Shown piece by piece: positions 4,655 to 54,696 of a stretch of 64,000 bases of DNA. Where the stretch lies: the IMG/VR virus record IMGVR_UViG_3300033996_001333, positions 3,389 to 67,388 of that record; one strand, 5' to 3'. Positions within the stretch are counted from its first letter, which is position 1. The number at the start of each line of letters is the position of its first letter. The notes beneath the pieces were generated by a model. That model had not been told where the DNA came from, searched no databases, and saw only the letters and a program-made list of their open reading frames with translations. This DNA is from a virus. Position numbers and translations under genes: made by a program.

Positions 4655-5797
4655 ATGACAATTACACGAAAAGAAATTGAAGACGGGATGATCCTGTTTT
4701 GCAAGTCAGGCAGCCACGCCTATGGCCTCAACACCGAGATGTCCGACTTGGACTTTAAGGGAATCTGTGTGGCGCCACAGCGGTTTTACACCACTCTCGA
4801 AACATTTGAGCAAAAGGATAAGGGGTGGGTAGGGGAGCAACAAGACGAGGGTGAGTTCAACTCTAGATTCCCTGAGTTAGATAACTCGGATTCAGTGGTG
4901 TACGGCATTCGCAGGTACCTGAGCTTGTTGCGGTCGCAAAACCCCAACATTTTGGAGATGCTCTGGCAGACTCCCGACAGCTACCTGTACCTTGACTTTC
5001 TGGGGCAGTCGCTAATTGACAACCGGAGGAAGCTAATTTCCAGGAGAATCTCTGGCACATTCGTTCAGTACGCAAGGTCCCAGATCAAGAAAATGGAGAC
5101 TCACCGCAAATGGCTCTTAAACCCTCCAACACGGCGACCGGAGTGGGAGGACTACGGTGTCTCTTCCCCGAGCTTAACCCCGTCTCAAATCGAGTCTTTC
5201 ATCGAGTACTTGTACTTGCTGATTAAAGACAGAATCGAGTACTACCAACCTTCAGTCGAGCTGTACGAGCTTCTCAACGACCGTGTTGATTGGAAAGGAA
5301 TTTTGAAGCAGAGTGTCTTACCGGAGGAGTGCTTCAATGAAACACAGAAAATCACGAGAGCAAGCGATGAGTACATGGCCCTTCTCCACTCAAGCCAACA
5401 GTACCGGTCAGATTTAAAACGGTGGAGTAATTACCAAGATTGGTTGACTAATCGGAATGTGAAGCGATCCGAAATTGAGCGGGCCTGTGGGTACGACGGG
5501 AAGAACGCCAGCCACTGTGTTCGACTTATGAAAATGGCCATTGAGGGAATGCGAACCGGAGAGCTTCTTGTGAATAGAAAGTTGGTTGGGGACGCAGATT
5601 TTCTTCTGGACATTAAGTACGGCAGGATTACGTATGACGAACTAAGCACAATTGTAACTCAGCTCTTTAAGGAGGCTGAGCACGTGGGGAAGAACGAGTG
5701 CGTCTTGCCGAACACGGTAGATGACCAACTCATCAACACTCTCTGTGCTGAGACTGTGGAAAAATTTCAAAGTCTCGGTTGTATTGAGAACCGGTGA
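4655..5797 (+). CDS. pol-beta-type nucleotidyltransferase (PF10127/RlaP-like)
   Basis: Near the N-terminus, GSHAYGLNTEMSDLDFKG matches the GS...DxD nucleotidyltransferase motif. 380 aa. Confidence 0.55.
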   Translation: MTITRKEIEDGMILFCKSGSHAYGLNTEMSDLDFKGICVAPQRFYTTLETFEQKDKGWVGEQQDEGEFNSRFPELDNSDSVVYGIRRYLSLLRSQNPNILEMLWQTPDSYLYLDFLGQSLIDNRRKLISRRISGTFVQYARSQIKKMETHRKWLLNPPTRRPEWEDYGVSSPSLTPSQIESFIEYLYLLIKDRIEYYQPSVELYELLNDRVDWKGILKQSVLPEECFNETQKITRASDEYMALLHSSQQYRSDLKRWSNYQDWLTNRNVKRSEIERACGYDGKNASHCVRLMKMAIEGMRTGELLVNRKLVGDADFLLDIKYGRITYDELSTIVTQLFKEAEHVGKNECVLPNTVDDQLINTLCAETVEKFQSLGCIENR

Positions 5798-7847: not shown

Positions 7848-8037
7848 AGGGGACCTTGAAAAGTTGGTAGAAAATAGAGACATTCTGAGCTACTCTTACT
7901 CGGAGGTTAAAGGCTGCCAGGGTTCACATGGCGGAGAATACCTGCAACTCATTTTACCGTCCGGAGCTTGCATAGGGATAGGCTCCTGGTCAACACCCAC
8001 CCCTGAAACGAGTGGGCTAAGCATAGAAGTTTATTAG
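7831..8037 (+). CDS. hypothetical protein
   Basis: 68 aa ORF ending just before the ncRNA region. Confidence 0.35.
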   Translation: MPLMIEGDLEKLVENRDILSYSYSEVKGCQGSHGGEYLQLILPSGACIGIGSWSTPTPETSGLSIEVY

Positions 8038-8039
8038 GC

Positions 8040-8400
8040 GGACAGTCCTACCACACGACATTAAACTGGGTGTAGCTCTGGAAGATAGTGCCCTATACAG
8101 GGGTTCGAATCCCCTCACCTCCATTTGAGAACGTGACCGTCCCTTCTTCAACCTTCCGACTTACTGAGAAGGCAGGGTCACTGTGGGTTAAACTCCCACC
8201 TCTAGTCAAGGGGGTGCCATGGTCTCGCTAGGGTAAAGATGTCGCCTGAGTGAAAGCCGCTTGCATAAGCACAAAATAGACGCTAACAACATCGTCAAAT
8301 TCGAGAGGATTGCCGTTGCCGTTTGAGCAACCGCACTCTGACTCATAACTCGGGGGTTTCGGCCCCCTTACACCGCCAACTTTCCTAGCCAAAACAGCAC
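8040..8400 (+). ncRNA. ssrA: tmRNA (ssrA), circularly permuted two-piece type
   Basis: ORF-free 390-nt region. Acceptor piece: T-arm AGGGGTTCGAATCCCCT plus 3' acceptor strand CACCTCC at 8099-8123. Coding piece: GGGGGTGCCATGGTCTCGCTAGGG at 8210 resembles the tmRNA 5' end GGGGCUG.AAUGGUUUCGACG, and pairs with the 3' strand including a G3-U wobble. The tag ORF at 8282-8326, GCT AAC AAC ATC GTC AAA TTC GAG AGG ATT GCC GTT GCC GTT TGA, encodes (A)ANNIVKFERIAVAV*. Compare the Synechocystis tag ANNIVPFARKAAPVAA. Confidence 0.65.
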
Positions 8401-8428
8401 CCTACACTCCAACCCACGCTGAAACACT

Positions 8429-9779: not shown

Positions 9780-9868
9780 CCCTTGCCCATGGTGCGAGAC
9801 TCTAACCCTTACCTTGGGTCTTATATCCACCCAAGCAAGCCCGCTCAAACAAGAACCATACAAGGAAA

Positions 9869-10730
9869 AATGACAACTTTCGACAAATGCCTCGGAGCCT
9901 TTATTGGCCTTGCGATCGGTGACGCGATGGGTGCGCCAGTGGAGTTCTCTCCACCGGGGACCTTTGAGACCGTCACAGGTTACCGAGCAGGGGGGCCCTT
10001 TAATCTGCCGTCAGGCTACTGGACGGACGACACATCGCAGGCTGTTTGCCTTGCCGAGTCTTTTATTCATTGCAATGGGCAGATCAATCTTGGAGACCAA
10101 ATGCGTCGGTACTCCAACTGGTACGAGTACGGAAGGAACAGCTCAACAGGTGTCTGTTTTGACATCGGCAATGGAACACTTCGTGCAATTGAGACTTTTC
10201 TCGTTGAGGGGTCTTTGAGTCTCTATCCGGAGAATTCGAAAGGAAACGGGTCTTTGATGCGTTTATCCCCCGTTTCTATTGTGTACCACAAGTCAAGTGA
10301 GCAGGACGCTGTAGCAGCGTGTGACGCGTCATCATCAACAACCCATGGCCACTTGGCATCCGACCTATGCAAAGATCTCGGTCGTTTGCTGCACCAATAC
10401 TTAAATGGCACGGGGGGAAAACCTGAAGTCTCGCCGGAGGGAATTGAAAATTCCGGGTACGCACCGAAGTCCTTAAACGCCGCACTCTACCACTTTGGGT
10501 CAACTTCGTCCTTTGAAGAGGCCATCCTGCAGGCTGTGAACTACGGGGACGACTCAGACACGGTTGCTGCGATTACGGGGCAGCTAGCAGGTGCTTACTA
10601 CGGTTACAAGGCTATTCCTAAGCGATGGGTTTCGGGGTTGCACGACAGCGAAAGACTTTTGCTCATAGCGAGCACTTTGTACGACCTTTCGTTTGGGACG
10701 GTTTCCCCCCTTGTTTCTACTCTGAAATAA
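9869..10730 (+). CDS. ADP-ribosylglycohydrolase (ARH/DraG family)
   Basis: GAFIGLAIGDAMGAPVEF, YWTDDTSQ, GNGSLMRLSPV and YGDDSDTVAAITGQLAGAYYG are ARH family signatures. Start taken at MTTFDK. Confidence 0.75.
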
Positions 10731-10738
10731 CGTATAAT
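10695..10738 (+). promoter_or_regulatory. intergenic element copy 4
   Basis: GGGACGGTTTCCCCCCTTGTTTCTACTCTGAAATAACGTATAAT. Overlaps the 3' end of the ARH gene. Confidence 0.5.
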
Positions 10739-10766
10739 ACCCTTACTTAAGCTCTCGAAACCGCAA

Positions 10767-11138
10767 ATGCATTTCTACGCGATCACACGCCGCGACCTTG
10801 ACCCTGCTCAGCAAGCTATTCAGGCGGCTCACGCACAAGTCGAGTTTGCGAGAGTACACCCTGATTCTTTAGCCCAAGACCACCCACCTTTCGTATGGCT
10901 ATCGGCTGAGAACAAGTGGGAGCTTTTGCAACTCTCGTGTGTTCTTCGGAGTTACGGACTCTCGGTGGTAGAATTTCACGATCCGGACTACAAGGGGTTT
11001 GACCCCAGTGCCCTAGCGTGCCTGGTCGACGAAGACCACCGTTATTTGCTCTCTGAGTTCCCTTTATGGGTTCCGTTCAGGACGCAGTGGTATAACTTTT
11101 CGGTGCCCGACCGCTTGGTGAACCACGCGGAGGGGTAA
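10767..11138 (+). CDS. hypothetical protein
   Basis: 123 aa ORF between the ARH and ART-like genes. Confidence 0.45.
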   Translation: MHFYAITRRDLDPAQQAIQAAHAQVEFARVHPDSLAQDHPPFVWLSAENKWELLQLSCVLRSYGLSVVEFHDPDYKGFDPSALACLVDEDHRYLLSEFPLWVPFRTQWYNFSVPDRLVNHAEG

Positions 11139-11147
11139 AGTACCTTA

Positions 11148-12368
11148 GTGCTTAGTTCGGTTGTACGAATGTACGGAGAAATTTCCCCCGATACCCTAGC
11201 GTTAATACACGACTTCACACGTTGTGTGAAACCGGACGGCGGGGTGTATGGTACAGCAGGACAGTGCCGCAAGGGGGTGGAGTCCGCAAAGGAAACTCGC
11301 AGCATTCGAAGAGAATCTGTTCTCAAGAATGTCAAGATTTACGAAAAGAATGACCCTGACGCTCTAAACAAGAATCTAAGGACTCTTGAGAGGATGTTCT
11401 TATCAAAGCCAGGGTACCGCACACCTCTCACAGAGAGTGCCCTCACCGCAATGCGATACCTTCGCCTAAAGTCCCACTTGGAGAAGAAGGCAGAGCAAAC
11501 ACAACAAAAGGGAGCCCTTCAGGATCAATACGAAGAATTAGTGAGAAACTCACCGAAGTACACGCAAACACCAGGATCGAGCAAACCTTTACCGAAAGCC
11601 TCGGTTGAGAAAGAGGTTGAGCTTCTCGAAAAGGAACTTGAAGCACTGAAGAAAAGAGTCCGAGTAATAGGGGAGCCTACCGACGACGTGTCAAGAGAGA
11701 AGCTTTTACACCTGCAAAAGGAAGGTATGGAGCTCGGTCGAACACTTTCGAGTGCTCGCAAGGGCACCTTGTTACCGCCGATTCTCACTTCTGTGTACGA
11801 ACGGCAAGGGTTCAATGCTCGACCGGAGGTTGTTGCAACGCGATCGGGACTGGAATCAAGAAAGGATATAGCCAGGAACCCTGACGGAAGACCAATTGTA
11901 GCTTATCGCGGTATAAGTTCAAATGAGTTTTCATTGCAGTTCAAAGGTGGTGGTCCCGAAGGAGACAAGCATTTTCCTGGTGGCGGAATTTATGGGAATG
12001 GGAGCTATTCTGCTTCTGCCCCTTTGTCTGGCAAGGTTAAGCATGATAAGTGGGCTCAAGACACGGCGAAGGACTACACGGGTGAAAGTGGGGATAAGTC
12101 AATAAGGGTTTCAGCCTTTGCATTCCGGTCTGACGCTCTACTCGTACAGTTTGAGGGGGACGGGAAGCAGTTTAAGCAGTGGGAAGGAGAGACCCTGCAG
12201 AAAGCAAGAGAGATTACGGGGTACGACCATCACGATGTGGGGTCAGCCGCTGCATCTCTGGGAATACATGCGTATAGAGTTCCACAGACCGATGGCCAAG
12301 ACTTCTGGGTTGTACTTAATCGGGGAGCAATTATCGTCGCAAACGACCCCGAATTAACACCGGACTAA
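11148..12368 (+). CDS. putative ADP-ribosyltransferase (Alt/Mod-like R-S-ExE candidate)
   Basis: The C-terminal half has AYRG (Arg), GSYSAS (STS-like) and QWEGE (ExE-like). The N-terminal half is coiled-coil. Confidence 0.4.
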   Translation: MLSSVVRMYGEISPDTLALIHDFTRCVKPDGGVYGTAGQCRKGVESAKETRSIRRESVLKNVKIYEKNDPDALNKNLRTLERMFLSKPGYRTPLTESALTAMRYLRLKSHLEKKAEQTQQKGALQDQYEELVRNSPKYTQTPGSSKPLPKASVEKEVELLEKELEALKKRVRVIGEPTDDVSREKLLHLQKEGMELGRTLSSARKGTLLPPILTSVYERQGFNARPEVVATRSGLESRKDIARNPDGRPIVAYRGISSNEFSLQFKGGGPEGDKHFPGGGIYGNGSYSASAPLSGKVKHDKWAQDTAKDYTGESGDKSIRVSAFAFRSDALLVQFEGDGKQFKQWEGETLQKAREITGYDHHDVGSAAASLGIHAYRVPQTDGQDFWVVLNRGAIIVANDPELTPD

Positions 12369-12913: not shown

Positions 12914-13552
12914 ATGCTCAACCTTGCTACACTTGTGGCCGTCTCCCTCGTTGGAACTGCTGCAACCCCCTTCAGCAACACCGTTGCCGCTAGGGACATT
13001 GCCCCAGAAACAACTTTCGAATCGCGCTTCATTTGCACAGGCTGCGGTCCAATCAATTCTCTGCCAACTCTCGCTTACAAGCTCACACCAGAGCGTAGAG
13101 CCCTGTTAAACACCATTCGCTTCGCTGAAGGAACCTGGAAAGAAGGCCATAGTGATGGCTACCGGGTTGTATTTGGGGGTGGAACGGTGTCCACGCTAGA
13201 CAGACATCCAAATCAAGTACGTTACTCGCTGCGTTATGCTAGCGCAGCGGCAGGTGCCTACCAGTTCATGCCCGCCACTTGGCGAGAGGCGTCCATCAAA
13301 CTAGGTCTCAACGACTTCGGGCCAGCCAGCCAGGACCAGGCTGCTCTTTATTTGATTGACAGGCGCAACGCTCTCGGTCTAGTTGACGCGGGACGAATCA
13401 CTCCGACACTAGTATCAAAGCTCGCACCAGAATGGGCTTCCCTTCCAACTTACAATGGAAGCAGTTACTACGATCAGCCGGTCAAAACCTACGACAACCT
13501 TCGCCTCTTCTACGAAAACAACTTGGCGATGCTGCGCCAGGAGGAAGGTTGA
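12914..13552 (+). CDS. lambda R-type lytic transglycosylase endolysin with N-terminal signal/SAR segment
   Basis: AEGT, GYRVVFGGG, DRHP, AAGAYQFMPATW, LGLNDFGPASQDQAALYLIDRRNAL and WASLP align to lambda R (SEGT, GYDVIVGGE, SDHP, GAGRYQLLSRWW, LGLKDFSPKSQDAVALQQIKERGAL, WASLP). N-terminal hydrophobic MLNLATLVAVSLVGTAA. Confidence 0.75.
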   Translation: MLNLATLVAVSLVGTAATPFSNTVAARDIAPETTFESRFICTGCGPINSLPTLAYKLTPERRALLNTIRFAEGTWKEGHSDGYRVVFGGGTVSTLDRHPNQVRYSLRYASAAAGAYQFMPATWREASIKLGLNDFGPASQDQAALYLIDRRNALGLVDAGRITPTLVSKLAPEWASLPTYNGSSYYDQPVKTYDNLRLFYENNLAMLRQEEG

Positions 13553-13671
13553 TGGGCGGTTTCCCGAACTTTACCTTAGGCTCTTTACGAGTTATACTGG
13601 GGTCCAGCCCGAAACGGCTTCAGCTAGGAACACCTTCGCTGGGCCAACGGGCACTGAGCCGTGGTTGCGCA

Positions 13672-14061
13672 ATGCAACAAACACGGATGTTCAACTCTAC
13701 TTTATCCATGCGTCTTACAAGACTCGCTTCATTCTTCCTCGCTGCCGGACTTCTTTCCGGAGCCCCCGCTCAAGCCAAGCAGTGCGGTCAAGCCAGCTGG
13801 TACGGTCCAGGACTGTACGGAAACAAAACTGCCAACGGCGAGACCTACCGTCCTGGGACAATGACTGCTGCTCACCCCTACCTCCCCCTCGGGTCTTGGG
13901 TGCGAGTTGTCAATCGCGACAACGGTCTTATTGCCGACGTTCGCATTAACGACCGGGGACCGTTCGTTGGTGGACGAATCATCGACTTGGGACACGGATC
14001 TGCTCAACGCCTTCGAGTAACTGAGAGTGGACTCGCTAACGTTTGCATCACTCGCATTTAG
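13672..14061 (+). CDS. RlpA-like double-psi beta-barrel protein (secreted)
   Basis: GQASWYGPGLYGNKTANGETY...GSWVRVVNRDNG...VRINDRGPFVGGRIIDL is an RlpA/DPBB signature. Signal peptide present. Internal start of track ORF 13432. Confidence 0.65.
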   Translation: MQQTRMFNSTLSMRLTRLASFFLAAGLLSGAPAQAKQCGQASWYGPGLYGNKTANGETYRPGTMTAAHPYLPLGSWVRVVNRDNGLIADVRINDRGPFVGGRIIDLGHGSAQRLRVTESGLANVCITRI

Positions 14062-14068
14062 CCCCTTC

Positions 14069-14100
14069 GGGTGATGACCCTGGTTATCACCCTTTTCCTT
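14069..14100 (+). terminator. rho-independent terminator
   Basis: GGGTGATGACCCTGGTTATCACCC hairpin followed by TTTTCCTT. Confidence 0.55.
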
Positions 14101-14102
14101 AG

Positions 14103-14381
14103 TTGTCTTTCCCAATGATCTTCTACGATTCAGCCACCGCTCAACGATTTGGGACTCAATTGTGCGAAGCACGGCTTTCTCAGGGATGGTCCAAGCAGGA
14201 CATTGCGTTTGCCGCACAAATACCCGTAGAACTTCTTCGAAAGATTGAGCGTGGCTCCGAGGTAGACGTGGGATTTGTGGCAGATGTTGCAAAAGTGCTT
14301 GGGATTGTATTCACAATACTGCCTTTCCGTTCAACACCGTTTTTTACCGTCGAATGTAATTCTCTTGAGGTTAATCCATGA
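14103..14381 (+). CDS. XRE-family HTH protein
   Basis: LSQGWSKQDIAFAAQIPVELLRKIERG is HTH-like. Confidence 0.5.
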   Translation: MSFPMIFYDSATAQRFGTQLCEARLSQGWSKQDIAFAAQIPVELLRKIERGSEVDVGFVADVAKVLGIVFTILPFRSTPFFTVECNSLEVNP

Positions 14382-14623
14382 AAATGTTACAGCTTAAGCA
14401 GAAAGAACCCAACGGCTTCACCCTCTTAGAACTCGTAATTTGCGTCTCCATCACTCTCATACTCCTTTCTATTTCATCGAGTTTACTCTTTGGTAAAAGT
14501 CCGTACAGAATGAGTGACTGTGTTCGATCCGGGGGAAACTGGACCGAAGGCACGGAGAACGGCAGCCCTCTCGCTCTTTGCACTTATGGCCCTGGCCATG
14601 GCTCCACAAGTCCTGAGAACTAA
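14378..14623 (+). CDS. small membrane protein with prepilin-type N-terminal motif (alternatively holin/spanin-like)
   Basis: KEPNGFTLLELVICVSITLILLSI resembles the G/FTLIE class III signal of type IV pilins. Start overlaps the upstream stop (ATGA). Confidence 0.45.
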   Translation: MKMLQLKQKEPNGFTLLELVICVSITLILLSISSSLLFGKSPYRMSDCVRSGGNWTEGTENGSPLALCTYGPGHGSTSPEN

Positions 14624-14745
14624 CGCAACCACCGTAGTTGTAACTCTAAGAGGGTTAGCAAAGTTTTGCAAAGGTTCGCACCCTTACAACTACTTTCCGG
14701 GAATTGTAACCCGGTTCTGTACAGAAAACACACACAAAAACAAAC

Positions 14746-15312
14746 ATGACTTTTAAACTTATTGCCGCATTGGCAGTTGTCTCCTTCCTGTCAACTCCTG
14801 TAATGGCGTCCGAGGTTGGAAATTACGTCGGAGTTGGAGTGAATCTTAACCGCCAAGGCGTTGACGGTACTGAGTACACTTCGAATCGCACGGTCGCTGG
14901 TGTCGCAGTTCAGTCTCGGTTCCGTCTGAGCGAGCCATCCAAGGTATCCGCTTCTGTTCGCCCGTACTTTAACTTTGCGGCTGGACCGAACAGCCAAACT
15001 GGTACTGCCGCTGGTGTCCTTGGCACCGTTGATTTCTCCCTTACCGGACGCGAAGTTGCTGATTCGTATATGAGTGACACGAACCTTTACGTTGGTGTGG
15101 GGGGTCAATGGGCGTTGACAAACAACGGACAAGCCAATTACCAGACGAGCGTAGGCCAAGGTTCCCAGTTCCTCTTCGTTGCTGGTGTTGAGCGTTCCTT
15201 CTCGCCGTCCCTCGTCGGGTTCGCTGACGTGAAGTTCCCCACTCAAACGAATGGTGTTTCGGGGACGGCCTACGCACCTGTCGGCACCGTTGGCCTGGGA
15301 TTCAAGTTCTGA
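14746..15312 (+). CDS. outer-membrane beta-barrel protein (OmpA/OmpW-like)
   Basis: Signal peptide MTFKLIAALAVVSFLSTPVMA, alternating beta-strand pattern, C-terminal GLGFKF aromatic terminus. Confidence 0.55.
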   Translation: MTFKLIAALAVVSFLSTPVMASEVGNYVGVGVNLNRQGVDGTEYTSNRTVAGVAVQSRFRLSEPSKVSASVRPYFNFAAGPNSQTGTAAGVLGTVDFSLTGREVADSYMSDTNLYVGVGGQWALTNNGQANYQTSVGQGSQFLFVAGVERSFSPSLVGFADVKFPTQTNGVSGTAYAPVGTVGLGFKF

Positions 15313-15327
15313 TCCCCGTCTAATAAA

Positions 15328-15353
15328 AGGGAGGGTAACCCTCCCTCTTTCCT
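15328..15353 (+). terminator. rho-independent terminator
   Basis: AGGGAGGGTAACCCTCCCT followed by CTTTCCTT. Confidence 0.5.
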
Positions 15354-15366
15354 TCAAAACCACAAA

Positions 15367-15708
15367 ATGATCAACTTTCGACAGGACATAAAAGAACGAC
15401 TTGAGCGGTCTAAGTTGACAGAACTAGACCTTGAAGAAGCTTGTTGCAACTACGTTTATTTGCGGCTGGGTGTAAACCCTTGCATGTCACTTAAGCAGTA
15501 CTACGAGATGAAGGGAGTGTATGTAAACGACTACAGCGAGGATAGCGATGTCAATAAACCTCTTTGGGTGGAACAGATTCACCATGTCATGTCGTTTATA
15601 GAAATGACGCTGGCTGTTTCTGGCATGGTAAGCACTAAGGCGGACAGGCAAATAGACGAGATTTTTAGGGCGGCAGCAGAGGAACCCTCACGGGTTGCCC
15701 CCGATTAA
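15367..15708 (+). CDS. hypothetical protein
   Basis: 113 aa ORF. Confidence 0.45.
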   Translation: MINFRQDIKERLERSKLTELDLEEACCNYVYLRLGVNPCMSLKQYYEMKGVYVNDYSEDSDVNKPLWVEQIHHVMSFIEMTLAVSGMVSTKADRQIDEIFRAAAEEPSRVAPD

Positions 15709-15724
15709 ACATACGGTGGGTCAA

Positions 15725-15771
15725 GGGGACGGTTTCCCGCCCTTGTTTCTGCATCGCAGAAACGCTATATT
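15725..15771 (+). promoter_or_regulatory. intergenic element copy 5 (canonical)
   Basis: GGGGACGGTTTCCCGCCCTTGTTTCTGCATCGCAGAAACGCTATAT. Confidence 0.6.
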
Positions 15772-15794
15772 AAATCAGTTGAAGGACACCCGCA

Positions 15795-16163
15795 ATGACA
15801 AACCCGCAGTGGGACGACAAAGAGTACCGGGAAGCTTATATGGAAGCATCCATTGAGCAAGCGATTTCCTGGCAAGTAAAAATAAACAGGCAAAAGCGAG
15901 GTTTAACAAAACAACAACTTGCAGATAAGGCTGGAGTTAAAGTGGGAGTTATAGAGAGGTTAGAAGACCCCGAGATAAACGACCACAGCATCGATCTCCT
16001 GGTGAAAGTGGCCAAAGCTTTTGACTGTGCTCTGTCAATTAAACTAATTCCCTACGAGCAACTCGCGCAAGAAAGTCTCGATTTGTCCGAAGAGGCTCAG
16101 TATGCCCCACCCTTTCACACTCGCACCTACCCGTTAACCCACTCGCCGGAACAAACCCAATGA
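15795..16163 (+). CDS. XRE-family HTH protein
   Basis: RQKRGLTKQQLADKAGVKVGVIERLE is HTH-like. Confidence 0.5.
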   Translation: MTNPQWDDKEYREAYMEASIEQAISWQVKINRQKRGLTKQQLADKAGVKVGVIERLEDPEINDHSIDLLVKVAKAFDCALSIKLIPYEQLAQESLDLSEEAQYAPPFHTRTYPLTHSPEQTQ

Positions 16164-16426: not shown

Positions 16427-16440
16427 TTTTACCCCGTGCG

Positions 16441-16488
16441 CGGCGGGAAACCGTCCTTTACCCTCGCCCCTAAACAAGCTATAGTAAG
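16441..16488 (+). promoter_or_regulatory. intergenic element copy 6 (GC hairpin in inverted orientation)
   Basis: CGGCGGGAAACCGTCC...CTAAACAAGCTATAGT. Confidence 0.45.
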
Positions 16489-16507
16489 CTCACACCGTAA
16501 AACAACA

Positions 16508-17449
16508 ATGCACGTGACCGAAACTAAAGAGTATCAGAAAACAGAGCCGATTGAGGTTTACTCGAATCGCGACGGACAAAACCTGTACAAGATTTCAAAG
16601 ACCTCCTTTACGTTCAGTGCCGGTGAAAGGCAGGTCCGGTTGCACGACACTCCAACAAATTCGACTGACATTATCGTAGACGCAGACATACACAGCGGAG
16701 AAAGTTTCGCAGAACTTCTTCTGACTCTGTCGGCCATCAAAGACCTTCCTGTGCTGCGAAGTCTACAATTGGACATCCCGTACTTACCTTATAGCCGCCA
16801 AGACCGCCAGTGCGCTGAAGGGGAAGCGTTTTCGCTAAGAACTTTTGTAAAAGCTCTCGCCCCTTATCTTAAGGGAGTGTGCGACCGGGTGTACACATGG
16901 GACGTGCACAGCCACGTTGCAAATGAGCTCTTTCGAACCGAAATCGGCTGCGAGTTCAACAACCTACAACCCCAACTGTTTCTCCAGAAGTTCAAAGACC
17001 GGGGGCAAGAGTTTAGTGCTGAGACAATTGTGATTGCTCCGGATAAAGGTGCAGTCGAAAGAGCAACCCTCGTACAACAAACACTGGGGCTCCACTCTGT
17101 AGTGTACGCTACGAAAGTTCGCAACCCTGAAGACGGGCAAATCCTAAGGACGGAAGTTCCAGAAGACGTCAGTTACAAGGGCAAAAACCTTCTGATTGTG
17201 GACGACATCTGCGATGGCGGTCGCACCTTTATCGAACTCGCCAAGGTGCTACGTCAGTTCGACCCGTCTCGAATTGACCTCTATGTAACTCACGGAATTT
17301 TCTCCAAGGGTTTTAAGGTGTTTGGGAGCTTAATCGACAACTTTTTCGTTGCGAACTTGCTCCCGTATAAAGCCTTTTACCAAGAGTTACCCTCGTACTT
17401 GACCTACCTTCGTACCGAAAACTACCCCACCCCACGCAACCAACCATGA
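16508..17449 (+). CDS. ribose-phosphate pyrophosphokinase homolog (Prs-like, or ADP-ribose pyrophosphokinase Adps-like)
   Basis: IPYLPYSRQDRQ matches MPYxGYARQDR. LIVDDICDGGRT is the PRPP-binding loop. Stop overlaps the next ATG. Confidence 0.75.
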   Translation: MHVTETKEYQKTEPIEVYSNRDGQNLYKISKTSFTFSAGERQVRLHDTPTNSTDIIVDADIHSGESFAELLLTLSAIKDLPVLRSLQLDIPYLPYSRQDRQCAEGEAFSLRTFVKALAPYLKGVCDRVYTWDVHSHVANELFRTEIGCEFNNLQPQLFLQKFKDRGQEFSAETIVIAPDKGAVERATLVQQTLGLHSVVYATKVRNPEDGQILRTEVPEDVSYKGKNLLIVDDICDGGRTFIELAKVLRQFDPSRIDLYVTHGIFSKGFKVFGSLIDNFFVANLLPYKAFYQELPSYLTYLRTENYPTPRNQP

Positions 17450-18960
17450 AAATTTTTGCGCCCCACGCAACCGACTTTTACAAGACAGGACACCCTTCGC
17501 AAAACCCTGAAGGCACCGAAGTAATCTACGCCAACATGACGGCAAGGTCCGACCGTCTGGCGAACATGCCCGCTGACTTCGACCACAAGATCGTCGTGGC
17601 CAACATCCAGGGGACAATGAAATGGATGCTGAGGGATCTTTGGAATGAGACCTTTTTTCAGCAACCCAAGGCCAAGGTGTTGGACAAATACAAGCGGCGA
17701 ATGGACTCCTCGCTCGGAGAAGGTGTTGTCGGCACTGACCACATTGCTGAGCTTCACGACCTGGGTTACATGCCGCTGCATGTGAAGGCACTACCCGAGG
17801 GCAGCCGTGTTAACATCGGAGTGCCGTTTCTGACGGCGCAAAACACACACAATGAGTTTAAGTGGCTGGCCCCGTGGTTAACCAACTATGTCGAAACCGC
17901 CAAGTCGTCTGAGCTGTGGAAGGCCATCAACGTGGCAACCATCGCCTACGAGTTTCGCCGTCTTCTCGACCACTACGCTGAAACCACAGGGAGTAATCCG
18001 CAGTTTGTTGACTTTCAGGGGCACGACTTCTCCGCTCGCGGAGTCGGAGGCATTCACGATGCCGCTGCGCACCAAATCGGCCACCTTTTTTCCTTCAAGG
18101 GCACGGACACAATCCTTTCCATTGATTATTTGGAGGATTACTACGATTGCGGTTCCAATTTCATTGGGGGTAGTATTCCCGCTACGGAACACAGTGTGAC
18201 CTGCCTTGGCGGTCAAAGAAACGAATTAGAGACAATTCGTCGAATTATTACAAAAGTATACCCAACTGGGCCGGTCAGTGTAGTTTTTGACACTTGGAAC
18301 TACTGGGATGCACTGACTGTTATTGCACCCGCACTTAAGGAAGACATCTTAAATCGTCGTCCGAATTCTCAGGGCATCGCTAAGGTCGTATTCCGTCCCG
18401 ACAGTGGTGACCCTGAGAAAATCATCTGCGGTGACGCTGACGCTGAGCCAGGTAGCCGAGAGTACAAAGGTTCGCTTGAGCTTTTATGGGAGGTCTTCGG
18501 AGGAACGGTAAACGAGAAGGGTTTCAAGGTACTGAACCCTCGAGTTGGCTTAATTTACGGCGACTCAATCACTCTTCCACGGGCCAGGGCCATCCTGGAG
18601 CACATGAGGCAGCTTGGGTGGGCGTCCGAAAACATCGTGTTCGGTATCGGTTCCTACACCTATCAATACCATACACGGGACACGTTCGGTATCGCATACA
18701 AAACGACCTGGGGGCAAATTAACGGTGTCGCCGTTGAAACTATGAAGGACCCCATTACGGATCGCGGCACGAAAAAGTCGGCGTTGGGTCTACTGCGAGT
18801 TGAAAAGGATGGGGAGAACTTTGTTCTTCATCAACAGCAGACTCGTGAGCAAGAGCAGCGAGGCGAGCTTCGCACCGTGTTCTTAAACAGCGTGGTTTAC
18901 GGGGAGGATGTAAACTCACTGCCTAACATTCGTACTCGACTTCTCAACCCCGCAGCTTAG
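17446..18960 (+). CDS. nicotinamide phosphoribosyltransferase homolog (Nampt/NadV-like, or Namat-like)
   Basis: 504 aa. N-terminal TDFYKTGH (compare the Nampt TDSYK motif), internal FKGTDT. ATGA overlap with the Prs-like gene. Confidence 0.7.
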   Translation: MKIFAPHATDFYKTGHPSQNPEGTEVIYANMTARSDRLANMPADFDHKIVVANIQGTMKWMLRDLWNETFFQQPKAKVLDKYKRRMDSSLGEGVVGTDHIAELHDLGYMPLHVKALPEGSRVNIGVPFLTAQNTHNEFKWLAPWLTNYVETAKSSELWKAINVATIAYEFRRLLDHYAETTGSNPQFVDFQGHDFSARGVGGIHDAAAHQIGHLFSFKGTDTILSIDYLEDYYDCGSNFIGGSIPATEHSVTCLGGQRNELETIRRIITKVYPTGPVSVVFDTWNYWDALTVIAPALKEDILNRRPNSQGIAKVVFRPDSGDPEKIICGDADAEPGSREYKGSLELLWEVFGGTVNEKGFKVLNPRVGLIYGDSITLPRARAILEHMRQLGWASENIVFGIGSYTYQYHTRDTFGIAYKTTWGQINGVAVETMKDPITDRGTKKSALGLLRVEKDGENFVLHQQQTREQEQRGELRTVFLNSVVYGEDVNSLPNIRTRLLNPAA

Positions 18961-23950: not shown

Positions 23951-24601
23951 GTGACCAAAGCACCCCAACCCATGAAGTCTCCCCCTGAATCAGTTACAGG
24001 AAAACTTTTGCTGAAGCCAGGGGACAGTGTGTTTGTTCCTGGAAAAATACTTAAAAATTCACCCGACGGTCGAACCTGGGGCACTGAAGTTCCTTACCTT
24101 CACTTTCGGAAGAGTCCAGTAAAAGACGGTCTCTACGTTGTGTCCGACATCTGGATGCACCCGAAAGCAACAGACCCGAACGTTCCATCCTCGTACTGCT
24201 ACACTCTGGTAAGAGTCCGTGAGGATCGAACCTGGACAAATGAACGGCGTAATCACAGAACACTAAGAAGCTGCTTCTCCCCGGAAGACATGTCAGAGAC
24301 AAAACTCCCGTACAACTGCCTCGACTGGGACCAGCTCCTTCGAGACCAAGTAGTTACGTCCTACGCGTACACCCCTGGTGAAAAGTTCGACATGGACGAG
24401 TTTAGAAAAGATCTGGGCCAAGTTCTTTACAAGCACAAGGTTACTCTGTCAGTAGACACGAAGTTCTCCGACGACTGGGACGAGCACGGCACAAACCACC
24501 TTGTTGTCCTCGCTAACGGGGAAATAAGGGGTGACCTTGGGTCTGACTTTCCAAAGCGGAGATCAGCGCCAGCCTGGGACAGTGGGAAACGAAATCGCTA
24601 G
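23951..24601 (+). CDS. hypothetical protein
   Basis: 216 aa ORF upstream of the RNA ligase. Confidence 0.5.
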   Translation: MTKAPQPMKSPPESVTGKLLLKPGDSVFVPGKILKNSPDGRTWGTEVPYLHFRKSPVKDGLYVVSDIWMHPKATDPNVPSSYCYTLVRVREDRTWTNERRNHRTLRSCFSPEDMSETKLPYNCLDWDQLLRDQVVTSYAYTPGEKFDMDEFRKDLGQVLYKHKVTLSVDTKFSDDWDEHGTNHLVVLANGEIRGDLGSDFPKRRSAPAWDSGKRNR

Positions 24602-24656
24602 TCCCAACCTTGCCCAGATAAACAAAACTCAACGGTCCCACCCACCTAAAGCTGTC

Positions 24657-25769
24657 ATGGAACCTTTAAACCTGCGCCACTTTCTAATCGACTGGTTAAA
24701 CTACCGGGTCGAGACTGCTTTTGAAGCACTTGCCGAGCACGACATTCGTGTTGCTCGCGACGAACGTTACCCTGCTCTTTTTAACTTGAAGTATGGCAGT
24801 GTAATGGCGGACAAGTCACTACCGATTGTTCGTGCCTGCCGTGGTGCCGTAGTCGAACTTGTTGACGATGGCACGGGCTCCCCGTACTTTCGGCTGGTTG
24901 CGTACGCCTTCGACCGCTTTTTCAACGTTGGCGAGGGGTATGCCGCTGAGATTGATTGGTCCACTGCCCGTGTAGCTGAGAAGTATGACGGGTCTCTGAT
25001 CAAGTTGTTCAACTATAAAGGAGAGTGGTTGGTATCAACATCGGGTTCAGTCGCTGGTTCTTCGGAAGTCGGGACCACGGGTCGCTCCTTCTCCGAGTTG
25101 TTTTGGCACGTTTTTAACGAAGTTGGATATGACCGGGCTGACCTCGACCCTTATTTTGTCTACGTCTACGAGTTGTGCCACAAAGACAACAAAATTGTTG
25201 TAGACTACGAGACTCCCTTACTACCTCTTCTGGCTGTTCGAAGCCGCTTTGACGATCTAAACGAAGTGGATCTCAAGCATTTTGAAAACCGCTTCAACAT
25301 CGCTCAGACCTACGACCTGCGCTCACATGAAGCTGTAACGCAGTTTGTAAACGACTCCTCTCGTGGTACCGCTGAAGGCGTAATTATTGTCGACGGAAAC
25401 GGAAACCGCCAGAAAGACAAGTCCAACGTCTATTGTCAGTTGCACAGGGTTAAAGGAAACGGCGAACCGGATTTCTCCGAGCTTTTCCTGAACGACGACT
25501 TGGAAGAGTTTCTGCTTCACTTTCCCGAGTATCGTGGGGGTTTTGACGTTCACCTGCGTTCCATCGAAGTGATGGAGAGTGCGGTGAGCGAGAACATGAG
25601 GGCTCACAACCATCTTAACCAGAAGGATTTCGCTCAAGCCGTACTTGCCGAGTCAAAAGAACTTTCTGGAGCATGCTTTGCGATTCGATCCGGCAAAGTC
25701 GGATCCTTTGCAGAGTGGCTCGAAGGTTTAACCCCGAAAAAGCTCGACGTTTTGCTCGGAATTTCCTGA
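24657..25769 (+). CDS. RNA ligase, T4 Rnl1-like
   Basis: AEKYDGSLIKLF is nucleotidyltransferase motif I (KxDG), like T4 Rnl1 KEDGSL. 370 aa taken from the internal ATG (MEPLNL). Confidence 0.65.
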   Translation: MEPLNLRHFLIDWLNYRVETAFEALAEHDIRVARDERYPALFNLKYGSVMADKSLPIVRACRGAVVELVDDGTGSPYFRLVAYAFDRFFNVGEGYAAEIDWSTARVAEKYDGSLIKLFNYKGEWLVSTSGSVAGSSEVGTTGRSFSELFWHVFNEVGYDRADLDPYFVYVYELCHKDNKIVVDYETPLLPLLAVRSRFDDLNEVDLKHFENRFNIAQTYDLRSHEAVTQFVNDSSRGTAEGVIIVDGNGNRQKDKSNVYCQLHRVKGNGEPDFSELFLNDDLEEFLLHFPEYRGGFDVHLRSIEVMESAVSENMRAHNHLNQKDFAQAVLAESKELSGACFAIRSGKVGSFAEWLEGLTPKKLDVLLGIS

Positions 25770-33225: not shown

Positions 33226-33316
33226 GGGGGTAACCGGTTGCCCTGGGGCGGTTTACCCCCTTGCCCTTCCGAAGGGAAAACGGTATAGTTACTTCAGTCC
33301 ACTTGAGCAACCATGT
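33226..33316 (+). promoter_or_regulatory. intergenic element copy 14 plus conserved leader
   Basis: GGGGGTAACCGGTTGCCCTGGGGCGGTTTACCCCCTTGCCCTTCCGAAGGGAAAACGGTATAGTTACTTCAGTCCAC...GCAACCATG. Leader shared with 36876, 37186 and 51340. Confidence 0.55.
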
Positions 33317-39159: not shown

Positions 39160-40281
39160 ATGGCAAACATCGAACGCAAACTCGCCTCCGTCCGACAAGT
39201 AACGGAGATTCGCCCAATCCCGGACGCCGACGCAATTGAGTGCGCCATCGTGGGAGGTGGCTGGCCCGTTGTCGTGAAGAAGGGGGAGTTCCAAGCTGGC
39301 GATCTTGCAATCTACTTCGAGATTGACTCGTGGATCCCCCACGGGCTTGCCCCGTTCTTGTCAAAGGGGAAGGAACCAAGGGAGTACAATGGAGTGAAGG
39401 GGGAAAGGTTGAAAACCGTCCGGCTCCGTGGCCAAGTCTCTCAGGGTCTCCTACTTCGCTTCTCGGACATCTCTCCAAGCTTCTACGTTGTTTCGCTAGC
39501 TGAACCTTATGGGGGGAGGGGATCTCTCCGAGTTGATGAGTGTGTGTGGGAAGAAGGCGAAGATTTCACTCTAGAGTTTGGCATTCAGAAATGGGAGGCC
39601 ACGGTCCCCGCTTGCCTTGCCGGACAAGTGCGTGGAAACTTCCCGAGTTTTTTGGTTAAGAGTGACCAAGAGAGATGTCAAAATATCGTGAGAAAAATCT
39701 TCGAGGAGCACAAGGAGGAAACCTACGAAGTATCCTTGAAGCTGGACGGGTCTTCCTGCACCATTTATGCCCGAGACGGGGACAGTGGCGTGTGTAGCCG
39801 CAACCTAGACCTTAAGGAAACAGAAGGAAACAGCTTCTGGAAGGCTGCTCGAGAACAAGGTGTAATCGACGCCTTGCTGTCCTATAATAAGGAAACCGGT
39901 CGCAACATTGCTCTTCAGATGGAGCTGTGCGGTGAAGGAATTCAAGGAAACCAAGAAGGAATCAAAGGACAACGGCTTTTTCTTTTTGACGTCTTCGACA
40001 TCGACACTCAGACCTACATGAAGCCGGGGCAGCGACTTGTTTTCCTTGACGAGGTTTTGACTGAGCTTGGGGCCAAGTTGGAACACACTCCCATTATTGA
40101 CCTTCGAACTTACGTTGCCGGACGATTCGCCAACCTTGACGAGCTACTTGCTTATGCAGATGGTCCGTCTATGAACCCAAAAGTCAAGCGTGAAGGTGTG
40201 GTGTTCAAATCGTACGACTCCGCGTTCTCCTTCAAGGCCATTAGCAACGAGTGGTTGCTGTGGAAAGGGAAGAAAGGGTGA
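39160..40281 (+). CDS. RNA ligase, DraRnl/DRB0094-like (Rnl5 family)
   Basis: N-terminal KLASVRQVTEIRPIPDADAIECAIVGGGWPVVVKKGEFQAGDLAIYFEIDSWIP resembles the DRB0094-family N-domain. Motif I candidate VSLKLDGSS (KxDG). Confidence 0.55.
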   Translation: MANIERKLASVRQVTEIRPIPDADAIECAIVGGGWPVVVKKGEFQAGDLAIYFEIDSWIPHGLAPFLSKGKEPREYNGVKGERLKTVRLRGQVSQGLLLRFSDISPSFYVVSLAEPYGGRGSLRVDECVWEEGEDFTLEFGIQKWEATVPACLAGQVRGNFPSFLVKSDQERCQNIVRKIFEEHKEETYEVSLKLDGSSCTIYARDGDSGVCSRNLDLKETEGNSFWKAAREQGVIDALLSYNKETGRNIALQMELCGEGIQGNQEGIKGQRLFLFDVFDIDTQTYMKPGQRLVFLDEVLTELGAKLEHTPIIDLRTYVAGRFANLDELLAYADGPSMNPKVKREGVVFKSYDSAFSFKAISNEWLLWKGKKG

Positions 40282-40299
40282 GGGTGAATTGCCCCTTAA

Positions 40300-40343
40300 G
40301 GGCGGTTTCCCGCCCTTGTTTCTCCGGGGGCAAAACGCTATAA
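40300..40343 (+). promoter_or_regulatory. intergenic element copy 19 (canonical)
   Basis: GGGCGGTTTCCCGCCCTTGTTTCTCCGGGGGCAAAACGCTATAAT. Confidence 0.6.
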
Positions 40344-43445: not shown

Positions 43446-43670
43446 ATGAACCCCAACCCCTACGACACTGCCTTACATGGTAAGGCGTTTTCCCTTGGCG
43501 ATGCGATTCAGACTCGACTATGGGACCTTTCCGTGCAATGTCATCTCCTCCTTGATCGCGGACAGTTTGACCTCGTAAGGTTACTCCAAGCTGAGGGCGA
43601 AGCTCTCGCTCAGGCATACGAAAACCAAGAACCCTTCCTTGTAACACACTTTAACCGGAATGAAAGCTGA
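43446..43670 (+). CDS. hypothetical protein
   Basis: 74 aa ORF. Confidence 0.4.
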   Translation: MNPNPYDTALHGKAFSLGDAIQTRLWDLSVQCHLLLDRGQFDLVRLLQAEGEALAQAYENQEPFLVTHFNRNES

Positions 43671-48133: not shown

Positions 48134-48315
48134 TCTGGATCAAATTGCCGGGTGCCCTCTGCATCGTTCTGCAAACCGTTTTCATAACTTTGAAGGTAGC
48201 GGGTCAGGTTTCCTGGCCCTGGCTCACAGTGCTTTCACCGACCCTTGTGCCAATTTTTCTACTTGGGTCGGGAGCCCTTTGGATGATTCTTCAACTACTT
48301 TCGCATGAGAAATAA
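48130..48315 (+). CDS. small membrane protein
   Basis: Two hydrophobic helices. ATGA overlap with the upstream gene. Confidence 0.4.
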   Translation: MIWIKLPGALCIVLQTVFITLKVAGQVSWPWLTVLSPTLVPIFLLGSGALWMILQLLSHEK

Positions 48316-48318
48316 CTA

Positions 48319-49985: not shown

Positions 49986-50097
49986 GGGACCGTAGCTCAA
50001 CTGGTAGAGCACGAAAAGTTATCTTGACAAAGATACATCAGCAATTAAATTACCTCTTTTAAAGGCGCGGTTGCAGGTTCGAGTCCTGCCGGTCCCA
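49986..50097 (+). tRNA. tRNA-like gene with about 40-nt insertion in the anticodon region
   Basis: Acceptor GGGACCG/CGGTCCC, TA, D-arm GCTC-AACTGGTA-GAGC, T-arm GCAGG-TTCGAGT-CCTGC. 61 nt lie between the D-arm and the T-arm where 21-22 are expected. Confidence 0.4.
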
Positions 50098-54652: not shown

Positions 54653-54696
54653 TCGGTTGCCTTTGCAGCCACACTAAACAACAACAACAATACAAA

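Follow-up and report, generated by a model that had tools for sequence, protein, structure and literature searches.

The interval at positions 12914-16163 of a 64-kb stretch of DNA from an uncultured virus (IMG/VR record IMGVR_UViG_3300033996_001333; the whole stretch is referred to as the window) holds seven genes, all on the + strand according to the open reading frame (ORF) listing and family scans, and we propose that it represents a conserved cell-envelope block that combines an exported wall-degrading pair with two surface-remodelling proteins. We put the probability of this reading at roughly one half. The wall-degrading pair consists of a glycoside hydrolase family 104 (GH104) lysozyme and a double-psi beta-barrel (DPBB) protein of the RlpA family, and the two surface proteins are a type IV prepilin-like mini-pilin and a predicted outer-membrane beta-barrel. 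All four products carry export signals, each of the exported genes belongs to an identifiable family, a core of the block is conserved in related contigs, and all four envelope genes evolve under purifying selection, with ratios of nonsynonymous to synonymous substitution rates (dN/dS) of 0.03-0.27; the roles and the timing of the products are what we infer from the sequences. An earlier, sequence-only reading had described four consecutive exported genes flanked by two XRE regulators. The four export signals are indeed present, but one of the regulators, XRE1 (14115-14381), intervenes between the DPBB and pilin genes and is thus internal to the block, coupled to the pilin gene through an ATGA overlap.

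The conservation of the block was assessed by tblastn comparison of the window proteins with fetched loci and their gene tables (L003-L006, L019-L023, L029 and L030). Synteny of the block extends to at least 10 related contigs; L003-L006 and L019-L023 share the block, and L029 and L030 share its core. The order GH104-DPBB-barrel followed by prs-nampt occurs in every member of the clade, including L029 and L030, whose lysozymes show an identity of no more than 53-58% and whose barrels carry an S-layer homology (SLH) domain. The pilin gene, on the other hand, lies between the DPBB and barrel genes only in the subclade formed by the window and L006. XRE1, a gene for a 113-aa protein and XRE2 are confined to the closest relatives, XRE1 being absent from L006, L029 and L030 and XRE2 from L005, L006 and L029. 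These comparisons show GH104-DPBB-barrel to be the ancestral core, into which the pilin gene, XRE1, the 113-aa gene and XRE2 were inserted later. The notion of a single unit bracketed by regulators therefore does not hold: everything outside the core is a lineage-specific insertion, and the block is further divided by two terminators and an element resembling a promoter.

The first gene of the block encodes the GH104 lytic transglycosylase. Residues 57-180 matched the lambda lysozyme structures 1AM7/3D3D (phmmer, E 1.5e-15), the protein matched the endolysin family PHROG 90 (5e-33), and the catalytic Glu (AWSEGT in lambda, RFAEGT here) as well as the GAYQF, LGLxDF and WASLP motifs align with those of lambda, in agreement with the lambda-R-type transglycosylase called in the sequence-only reading. 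The catalytic residue, Glu72 (nt 13127-13129), is invariant in 16 phage and cellular homologues, and pairwise dN/dS values are 0.12-0.18. The kinship to lambda R suggested at the same time extends to fold and motifs but not to nearest ancestry: identity to enterobacterial phage R proteins is 34-43%, whereas the closest relatives are chromosomal GH104 proteins of Synechococcus, Prochlorococcus and Cyanobium, with ~65% identity over the catalytic domain. Some of these cellular homologues sit among housekeeping genes on 2.5-3.1-Mb chromosomes; on a 2.48-Mb Synechococcus chromosome, one of them is bordered by nadA, a DHQ synthase gene and purK, and these neighbours identify it as a housekeeping rather than a prophage gene.

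The phage and cellular GH104 proteins differ at both ends. In the window protein, residues 1-27 form an uncharged hydrophobic segment rich in Gly, Ala, Ser and Thr (LATLVAVSLVGTAAT; mean Kyte-Doolittle 1.86), and a CxxC motif (C41-C44, nt 13034-13045) stands between this segment and the catalytic domain. Signal-anchor-release (SAR) domains are likewise N-terminal hydrophobic segments rich in Gly, Ala, Ser and Thr; they tether the protein to the membrane until depolarisation releases it, and basic residues usually stand in front of the anchor. The first 12 residues are free of Lys and Arg in 36 of 36 phage-clade GH104 clusters versus 24% of the cellular-clade clusters, and all 36 also share the hydrophobic segment (on average 56% Gly/Ala/Ser/Thr) with the CxxC following it. 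Moreover, the C-terminal tail with two Cys found in the host proteins is missing from the phage clade. The phage clade has thus swapped a host-type basic signal peptide for an uncharged hydrophobic N-terminus plus CxxC, and this fixed combination is a new detail. The signal or SAR segment predicted for this protein thus stands as regards hydrophobicity and composition, with the qualification that basic residues are lacking throughout the phage clade. Compared with lambda R and the SAR endolysins P1 Lyz and phage 21 R21, the window lysozyme shares the catalytic domain and the format of a small stand-alone phage protein and, with the SAR endolysins, a weakly hydrophobic N-terminus rich in Gly, Ala, Ser and Thr. 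It differs from them in being nearer to picocyanobacterial chromosomal GH104 than to R, in the lack of basic N-terminal residues, in the conserved CxxC and in the lack of a neighbouring holin: no ORF with a membrane segment was found next to the lysozyme gene (12914-13552), so that the window contains no adjacent holin or pinholin.

The second gene encodes the DPBB protein, which scored well above the cut-offs of both Pfam DPBB_1 (71.8 bits versus 28.8, 5.7e-20) and TIGR00413 rlpA (104.4 bits versus 82.15) and contains the NDRGP motif. Its Sec signal, MRLTRLASFFLAAGLLSGAPAQA, ends in LLSGAPAQA and is followed by KQC, which represents an AxA site for signal peptidase I and leaves a mature form of ~95 aa; the RlpA-like DPBB protein with signal peptide described in the sequence-only reading was thus borne out. 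Direct reading of the sequence revealed no lipobox (L-x-x-C) in the protein, so it is not a lipoprotein, and no SPOR domain was matched, the protein ending directly after the DPBB domain. The lack of a lipobox sets it apart from RlpA lipoproteins, and the lack of SPOR from RlpA of E. coli and P. aeruginosa, which have this domain, even though its domain scores and NDRGP motif place it in the same family. From its sequence, we regard it as a soluble periplasmic protein consisting of the DPBB domain alone. With pairwise dN/dS values of 0.03-0.08, the DPBB gene is under purifying selection. Genes resembling rlpA are present in 26 Synechococcus phage records as well as in Nostoc and Anabaena phages, and the window protein is 52-59% identical to these cyanophage homologues. 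Such genes have been described as widespread host-like genes of cyanophages, the host gene being stress-responsive, and in the Nostoc phages A-1 and N-1 lysozyme-like and DPBB domains are fused in a single ORF (PMC4916379). The window gene differs from the cyanophage "rare lipoprotein A" genes (S-CBS4, S-CRM01, S-CBWM1, B3/B23, S-PM2) in that it directly follows a GH104 gene and is preceded by a conserved structured leader.

This leader, the spacer between the lysozyme and DPBB genes, retains nucleotide conservation out to L006 despite a flanking dS above 1.2, that is, with synonymous sites saturated. It contains a degenerate copy of an intergenic repeat module at 13552-13598 (GGGCGGTTTCCCGAAC, then TTTACC-17-TATACT at 13570-13598) and ends in a hairpin, CCGTGGTTGC-GCAAT-GCAACAAACACGG, which may serve in translation control or as an RNA processing site. 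We consider the spacer to be a leader and not coding, judging from this pattern of conservation. The true start of the DPBB gene is most likely 13687 or 13708. Starts at 13432 or 13552, which ORF finders and gene callers propose and which give calls of 169-209 aa, are probably wrong: they would place ~50 residues ahead of the signal peptide, and we rejected them because this part shows conservation at the DNA level, accommodates an indel of 30 nt and includes the hairpin, and because the L029 homologue begins at its signal peptide. In L029 this homologue overlaps the lysozyme stop codon, and the two genes overlap in L030 as well.

Several arrangements link the muramidase and DPBB functions. 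The overlap of the two genes in L029 and L030 and the fusion of the two domains in the Nostoc phages are joined by T4-like contigs in which a GH24 lysozyme, non-homologous to GH104, a DPBB gene, a gene for a 142-aa membrane protein and an SLH-barrel gene lie within ~3 kb of each other. One of them, the T4-like cyanophage contig L008 (5054-9007), belongs to an unrelated lineage and encodes, in order, a 169-aa protein, the GH24 lysozyme, the DPBB protein, the 142-aa membrane protein (PHROG 3316), a 295-aa SLH-barrel and a Dps-like protein.

The barrel gene is the third member of the core. Its product carries a Sec signal, MTFKLIAALAVVSFLSTPVMA, ending in TPVMA and followed by SE, and terminates in the beta-signal GLGFKF, in which G183 and K187 are invariant and F188 is at least 90% conserved. 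AlphaFold2 (AF2) modelled eight strands (pLDDT 77, pTM 0.73), and the top Foldseek matches in the PDB were OmpA-TM, Ail, OmpX, OmpW, NspA and OprF-N, each with probability 1.00 and with TM-scores to these small barrels of 0.45-0.59. Among viral models, S-PM2 p170 ranked first (Q5GQG9; TMq 0.79), and numerous small outer-membrane barrels of phages came next. The outer-membrane barrel that had been suggested on the basis of beta-strands and C-terminus is thus accepted by structure prediction. In sequence, residues 36-188 matched S-PM2 p170 and S-CREM1_199 with 46-48% identity over ~155 aa (tblastn, E 2e-32 to 6e-27), and pairwise dN/dS for the gene is 0.08-0.11. Pfam OMP_b-brl (PF13505) scored 18.6 bits against a gathering score of 28.7 and hence stayed below threshold; a remote relative found as a weak hit, P0069, is alone in passing PF13505 and provides a distant link to the general barrel clan. 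The resemblance to the OmpA N-terminal domain, OmpX, Ail, lambda Lom, OmpW and NspA accordingly lies in predicted fold, size, signal peptide and terminal aromatic beta-signal, while membership by sequence is not demonstrable and the family is nearly restricted to cyanophages. Lambda Lom is itself a phage-encoded small outer-membrane barrel.

Most of the 43 barrel homologues are 270-300 aa long and consist of signal peptide, SLH domain, Ala/Arg-rich linker and barrel. In the window protein no SLH match was found, and the SLH and linker columns are deleted in the alignment, so that only signal peptide and barrel are left; the homologous C-terminal barrel with the same invariant motifs and the GLGFKF end is what it has in common with S-PM2 p170 and S-CREM1_199. 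The SLH/linker region is partly or wholly absent also from P0001-P0003, P0004, P0005, P0017, P0039 and P0055. This distribution indicates that the SLH domain was lost repeatedly, and the window barrel appears to be an SLH-less derivative of the S-PM2 p170 family. As modelled here, the conserved part of that family would be an eight-stranded outer-membrane barrel with recurrent SLH loss, which is a new detail. Two database labels fit poorly: S-PM2 p170 (279 aa) is annotated as "putative S-layer protein", a name that cannot be transferred to the window barrel, which has no SLH domain, and S-CREM1_199 (292 aa) as "iron uptake porin", a label for which the window protein gave no NCBIfam match at E up to 0.1. 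The ancestral phage layout of signal peptide, SLH, linker and barrel resembles that of OmpM-type wall tethers. It is shared with OmpM of Negativicutes, Slp/SlpA of Deinococcus-Thermus and the cyanobacterial SLH porins, yet the phage barrel has 8 strands versus 16 or more in these proteins, and the window copy cannot tether.

The barrel family is small and looks phage-restricted. A full hidden Markov model search recovered 20 representative clusters among 1.84 billion proteins, the family was seen only in Synechococcus phages and viral contigs, and a cellular origin was not found among 185,579 species genomes, which gave two small contigs only. These two carry an SLH-barrel gene and were binned into metagenome-assembled genomes of an Acidimicrobiaceae (L024, CAYVOK010000080.1) and a Proteobacteria member (L025, RFQS01000146.1; 5.9 kb); the gene order of L024 matches that of the T4-like cyanophage S-CREM1, and L024 is probably a mis-binned phage fragment. 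The barrel of L005 (8001-8633; P0003) is extended by an insertion of 23 residues that includes a collagen-like Gly-X-Y run, GATGATGPTGPVGEAG, and falls in the loop that varies most among family members. The spacer between the pilin and barrel genes is near-invariant among relatives with dS 0.1-0.5, its conservation being far above that of neighbouring synonymous sites, although the RNA fold is not significant (z -0.68) and Rfam found nothing in the interval. Just upstream of the barrel ATG lies an A-run/(AC)n tract that differs in length among relatives, by 0, 1 or 2 nt; calls of 242-258 aa for the barrel in relatives were rejected, since these indels break the frame.

The mini-pilin is encoded by a gene whose product scored above the cut-offs of Pfam N_methyl (PF07963; 25.6 versus 21.2) and TIGR02532 (23.8 versus 16.3), which confirms the prepilin motif seen earlier. 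The leader MKMLQLKQKEPNG precedes FTLLELVI, giving a predicted mature form of 68 aa, with a single hydrophobic helix, FTLLELVICVSITLILLSI (mean Kyte-Doolittle 2.5-2.8), and a short tail in which the motif GKSPYRMSDCVRSGGNWTEG...ALCTY is conserved and two Cys are invariant. Among 5.8 billion proteins only 10 clusters of homologues were found, all of 72-81 aa, and tblastn against 50,697 phage records gave zero matches. Invariant or near-invariant positions are G13 (G-1), F14 (F+1), E18 (E+5), the motif GKSPYRMSDCVRSGG, C48 and C68; in the 11 sequences compared, G13 and E18 never vary and F14 is retained in at least 90%. The prepilin residues and Cys pair, which do not vary across the 10 homologue clusters, speak against the alternative considered in the sequence-only reading, and we regard a holin or spanin identity of the 81-aa protein as unlikely. 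The protein has one membrane segment, and its PHROG matches are to pilin-type or unknown families only, with no holin family among them. Pairwise dN/dS is 0.14-0.27.

In the PDB profile search, solved pilins matched the mini-pilin only at positions 4-34, that is, leader and first helix, and the best matches were the N-termini of the naturally truncated Geobacter PilA-N and of PilA. With a 68-aa mature form and a profile limited to these positions, there is no globular alpha-beta head, and the protein resembles a pilin stem alone. Phage-borne pilins have precedents: the prophage-encoded P-FimU is incorporated at the pilus tip and blocks tip-binding phages, and a group of virulent Pseudomonas phages encodes truncated PilA-like proteins of 60 residues (PMC12952977). 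Like P-FimU, P-PilA and the truncated PilA-like proteins, the mini-pilin is a phage product that starts with a class III prepilin signal (G-1, F+1, E+5), and like the truncated P-PilA group it is very short, headless and encoded by a probably virulent phage. It is unlike host and phage pilins in showing no sequence relation past the N-terminal helix, where it has its own conserved ~40-residue tail with the Cys pair, and unlike the other phage-encoded pilins in that its presumed host is a cyanobacterium. The restriction of the mini-pilin family to this phage subclade is a new detail.

Taken together, we envisage the following course. The GH104 and DPBB proteins would act as an exported wall-cutting pair, probably with endolysin function, in which a signal or SAR-like anchor would bring the GH104 enzyme into the periplasm independently of a holin, and the DPBB protein would clear glycan strands left by GH104. 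Holin-independent export is suggested by the lack of a small membrane protein beside the lysozyme and by the Gly/Ala/Ser/Thr-rich segment without basic residues in the 36 phage-clade clusters. The barrel would be inserted by the host beta-barrel assembly machinery (BAM), and the mini-pilin might be cleaved by a putative host prepilin peptidase (PilD) and enter the pilus assembly pathway. Both proteins could thereby alter what the infected cell displays, type IV pili being blocked or decorated and the outer membrane changed, and the most plausible purpose of such a change would be the exclusion of competing phages. This surface-remodelling role is suggested by the P-FimU and truncated PilA precedents, the invariant prepilin signal and Cys pair, the many small barrels of phages, and the S-PM2 barrel homologue, whose transcripts are among the earliest and most abundant and for which a protective role against infection or grazing has been suggested (PMC2984593). 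For the superinfection exclusion already raised in the sequence-only reading, the pilin-like proteins thus offer a direct precedent, but no function, be it lysis, exclusion or receptor masking, is demonstrable from sequence. The XRE proteins would be local regulators that came with the insertions.

A number of observations weigh against this reading. The absence of basic residues from the lysozyme N-terminus is atypical of both Sec signals and described SAR domains, and the AF2 model of the lysozyme, with pLDDT below 50 over residues 1-51, is uninformative on how the N-terminus and CxxC lie relative to the active site. The window barrel lacks the SLH domain typical of its family, so that a wall-anchoring function cannot apply here. 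The linkage of lysozyme, DPBB and barrel is known from two independent phage lineages only. Furthermore, the block is located among accessory, early-looking genes with sigma-70-like promoter modules and not beside structural or late genes, and the visible 64 kb are part of a genome of ~190-277 kb, in which a canonical lysis cassette could lie elsewhere.

The genomic setting would also agree with a block that has no part in lysis and belongs to an early host-takeover set comparable to auxiliary metabolic genes, in which GH104 and DPBB sustain wall turnover after host shut-off and barrel and pilin modify the surface. The ~65% identity of GH104 to a picocyanobacterial housekeeping gene, the wide distribution of rlpA-like genes as host-like cyanophage genes with a stress-responsive host counterpart, the neighbouring NAD-salvage, ADP-ribosylation and RNA-repair genes with their sigma-70-like promoters and the early expression of the S-PM2 barrel gene are all in line with this idea. 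Cells, too, pair a lytic transglycosylase with rlpA, as in the rodA-mltB-rlpA arrangement of L031 (CAKLQF020000002.1, "Acinetobacter phage MD-2021a", 305,545 bp), a record that we rejected as a jumbo-phage relative because it is a bacterial chromosome fragment (rodA-mltB-rlpA, tsf, rpsB). We nevertheless consider a pure takeover role unlikely: GH104 is a classic endolysin fold, an early and freely exported muramidase would endanger the infected cell, and the consistent change of signal peptide and the loss of the host C-terminal tail in the phage clade suggest altered export or regulation.

Rather unlikely, in our view, is that the whole core constitutes a lysis cassette for the cyanobacterial envelope, with GH104 as SAR-type endolysin, DPBB as accessory glycan cutter, the barrel, ancestrally tied to the wall through SLH domain and linker, as the factor that disrupts the outer membrane in place of a spanin, and a small membrane protein as trigger. 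A candidate for the latter is present in relatives, namely tm70, a ~70-aa protein with a charged C-terminus and a single long hydrophobic segment, which is encoded after the barrel in L029 (5376-5585), L030 (8187-8402) and L006 (8552-8782); here, the pilin-like protein could perhaps take its place. L029 and L030 have the order GH104 (overlapping DPBB), SLH-barrel, tm70, the T4-like contigs group GH24, DPBB, the 142-aa membrane protein and SLH-barrel within the short distance given above, and neither the block loci nor the T4-like loci compared matched a canonical spanin or holin family. In the interval 12914-16163 specifically, the search for a spanin gave no lipobox protein, no embedded or overlapping gene pair and no PHROG spanin match. 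It is possible that tm70 is a holin-like partner, but the gene is absent from the window and its product has no PHROG family match; matches to holin families were likewise absent for tm142, the 142-aa membrane protein, and for the small membrane ORFs of the window. The early and abundant transcription of the S-PM2 homologue is the opposite of what is expected for a late lysis gene, the barrel genes of S-PM2 and S-CREM1 are far from any lysozyme, terminators and a promoter-like site split the block, and multiple SLH losses fit poorly with a wall-linked mechanical role.

That the genes are unrelated and were brought together by chance in a hypervariable island, without any joint function, is improbable: although the pilin gene, XRE1, the 113-aa gene, XRE2, a 323-aa ORF, tm70 and an ADP-ribosyltransferase gene vary between relatives, terminators and promoter-like sites separate genes, and barrel and DPBB genes lie apart in S-PM2, S-CREM1 and B23, the GH104-DPBB-barrel order is kept even where lysozyme identity has fallen to 53-58%, GH104 and DPBB genes overlap in L029 and L030, the corresponding domains are fused in Nostoc phages, and genes for lysozyme, DPBB and barrel are also grouped in an unrelated T4-like lineage, whose lysozyme belongs to another family.

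The arrangement of transcription signals argues that the block is not one simple operon (Table 1). The two hairpins that follow the DPBB and barrel genes were the two best hits of the terminator scan and are retained via covariation, relatives having a GC hairpin of other sequence at the position of the second. They had been described as the only two clear terminators outside the repeated element; this is roughly right but not strict, since both were found and a further scan also gave a site at 43469-43487. The repeated element is an intergenic module of 46-70 nt with ~25-30 copies in the window (for instance 10692-10737, 15724-15769, 33246-33291 and 40297-40342), located at cassette boundaries, in which the GC hairpin GGGCGGTTTCCCGCCC is followed by a TTGnnn (TTGyyT) hexamer, a second hairpin within the spacer, and TATAGT. 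Its make-up resembles that of a terminator joined to a promoter of sigma-70-like type, and one full copy stands ahead of XRE2; besides the degenerate copy in the DPBB leader, another is present at 16443-16485. No sigma-70-type promoter was detected by promoter scan directly upstream of the barrel gene or XRE1. The two terminators, the promoter-like module before XRE2 and the degenerate copy between lysozyme and DPBB genes are the grounds on which we would not regard the block as a simple operon. Both regulators were correctly recognized as XRE proteins in the sequence-only reading, as each exceeds the HTH_3 gathering score.

Table 1. Features of the envelope block and the tmRNA, with positions in the window
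Feature	Position	Strand	Evidence and remarks
GH104 (lambda-R-type) lytic transglycosylase, 212 aa	12914..13552	+	PDB, PHROG, alignment, dN/dS
Conserved non-coding spacer between lysozyme and DPBB genes, 135 nt	13552..13686	+	Promoter scan, alignment, fold z-score -2.8
Conserved hairpin	13659-13686	+	Abuts ATG at 13687; retained where coding synonymous sites are saturated
DPBB-only RlpA-family protein, 124 aa	13687..14061 (alternative start 13708)	+	Pfam, NCBIfam
Terminator-like hairpin, 10-bp stem, then T-tract	14069..14100	+	Directly after DPBB gene; stem retained in L003-L006 with base changes
XRE1, XRE-family helix-turn-helix protein, 88 aa	14115..14381	+	HTH_3 28.8 bits versus 23; dN/dS 0.3-0.5
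Type IV prepilin-like mini-pilin, 81 aa	14378..14623	+	Start overlaps XRE1 stop (ATGA)
Highly conserved non-coding spacer before barrel gene, 122 nt	14624..14745	+	Alignment
Predicted 8-stranded outer-membrane beta-barrel, 188 aa	14746..15312	+	AF2, Foldseek, homology
Terminator-like hairpin, 8-bp stem (6 GC pairs), then T-rich tail	15328..15353	+	Directly after barrel gene
113-aa protein, no family match	15367..15708	+	Confined to nearest relatives
Full repeat-module copy: GC hairpin, TTGTTT, spacer hairpin, TATA	15724..15769	+	Repeat families D2, D8
XRE2, XRE-family helix-turn-helix regulator, 122 aa	15795..16163	+	HTH_3 28.5 bits versus 23; PHROG 1373 7e-13
Permuted (two-piece) tmRNA	8034-8417		ARAGORN; Rfam RF04321 67.9 bits versus gathering score 47 over 8068-8326

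The window as a whole, in which all long ORFs are on one strand, is presumably the accessory, non-structural part of a genome of ~190-277 kb that belongs to a large uncultured phage. IMG/VR contigs of 88, 190 (IMGVR_UViG_3300044970_001522) and 277 kb (IMGVR_UViG_3300044625_001067) share the same region with protein identities of 81-97%, while no near DNA match was found among isolate phages (50,697 phage records). The host is probably a picocyanobacterium (Synechococcus, Cyanobium or Prochlorococcus), judging from the best cellular relatives of the lysozyme, the distribution of the barrel family and the best phage matches of the DPBB protein and a DUF2828 protein, which are Synechococcus phages in both cases. 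The phage is probably virulent. Its gene content in the window comprises tRNAs, a permuted transfer-messenger RNA (tmRNA), RNA-repair and NAD-salvage genes, including two RNA ligases, a nucleotidyltransferase, the DUF2828-type RNA-binding protein, an ADP-ribosylglycohydrolase, PRPP synthase and NAMPT. The tag peptide predicted for the tmRNA by ARAGORN is ANNIVKFERIAVAV, which we take to resemble cyanobacterial tags.

Several features of the neighbourhood are recorded here. The block is surrounded by NAD/ADP-ribose genes (9783-12368 and 16436-18960) encoding the ADP-ribosylglycohydrolase (9783-10730), PRPP synthase and NAMPT; a 406-aa protein of the same set matches PHROG 16619 with its C-terminus. 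This neighbourhood is also found in L019 (330-4014), an ADP-ribosyltransferase toxin-like gene being added in some relatives, and L019-L022 have the additional ADP-ribosyltransferase gene upstream. An RNA-repair and translation set that includes three tRNAs is distributed over 4655-5797, 24531-25769, 39160-40281, 46649-48133, 49986-50097 and 54581-55167. A 112-nt tRNA-like match by Rfam, which is uncalled by ARAGORN, is possibly an interrupted tRNA, and tRNA 3' halves are repeated at 50062 and 50671. Small membrane proteins of 61 aa (two segments), 62 aa (one) and 95 aa (three) are encoded at 48130-48507 and 60051-60338; they matched only PHROG families of unknown function and are holin candidates unlinked to the lysozyme.

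Our literature search returned little on the way in which cyanophages get through the three layers of the host envelope, and neither a characterised cyanophage spanin nor a paper on this block was found. It is tempting to speculate that muramidase, DPBB and barrel form an unrecognised lysis or egress module for cyanobacterial envelopes, in which a barrel ancestrally tied to the wall through SLH and linker would take over the outer-membrane step that falls to spanins in proteobacterial phages, and the uncharged N-terminus and CxxC of GH104 would represent a new way of keeping an endolysin inactive before its release, but we attach a low probability to this proposal. Each part of the block belongs to a known family with phage-encoded precedent, namely lambda R and the SAR endolysins, the cyanophage rlpA-like genes, P-FimU/P-PilA, Lom-type barrels and S-PM2 p170. 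The block is therefore real and useful, it is not a new kind of system, and it does not overturn current understanding. What it supplies is a set of candidates: a GH104 enzyme that is exported and unusual at its N-terminus, an RlpA-like partner whose gene is closely linked, and a barrel family found nearly exclusively in cyanophages. An eight-stranded barrel with repeated SLH loss would correct two database labels, the "S-layer protein" that S-PM2 has carried since its genome description and the "iron uptake porin". Type IV pili of cyanobacterial hosts also serve buoyancy and DNA uptake, and the mini-pilin extends the recent finding of phage-encoded pilins in Pseudomonas and Xylella to probable cyanophages.

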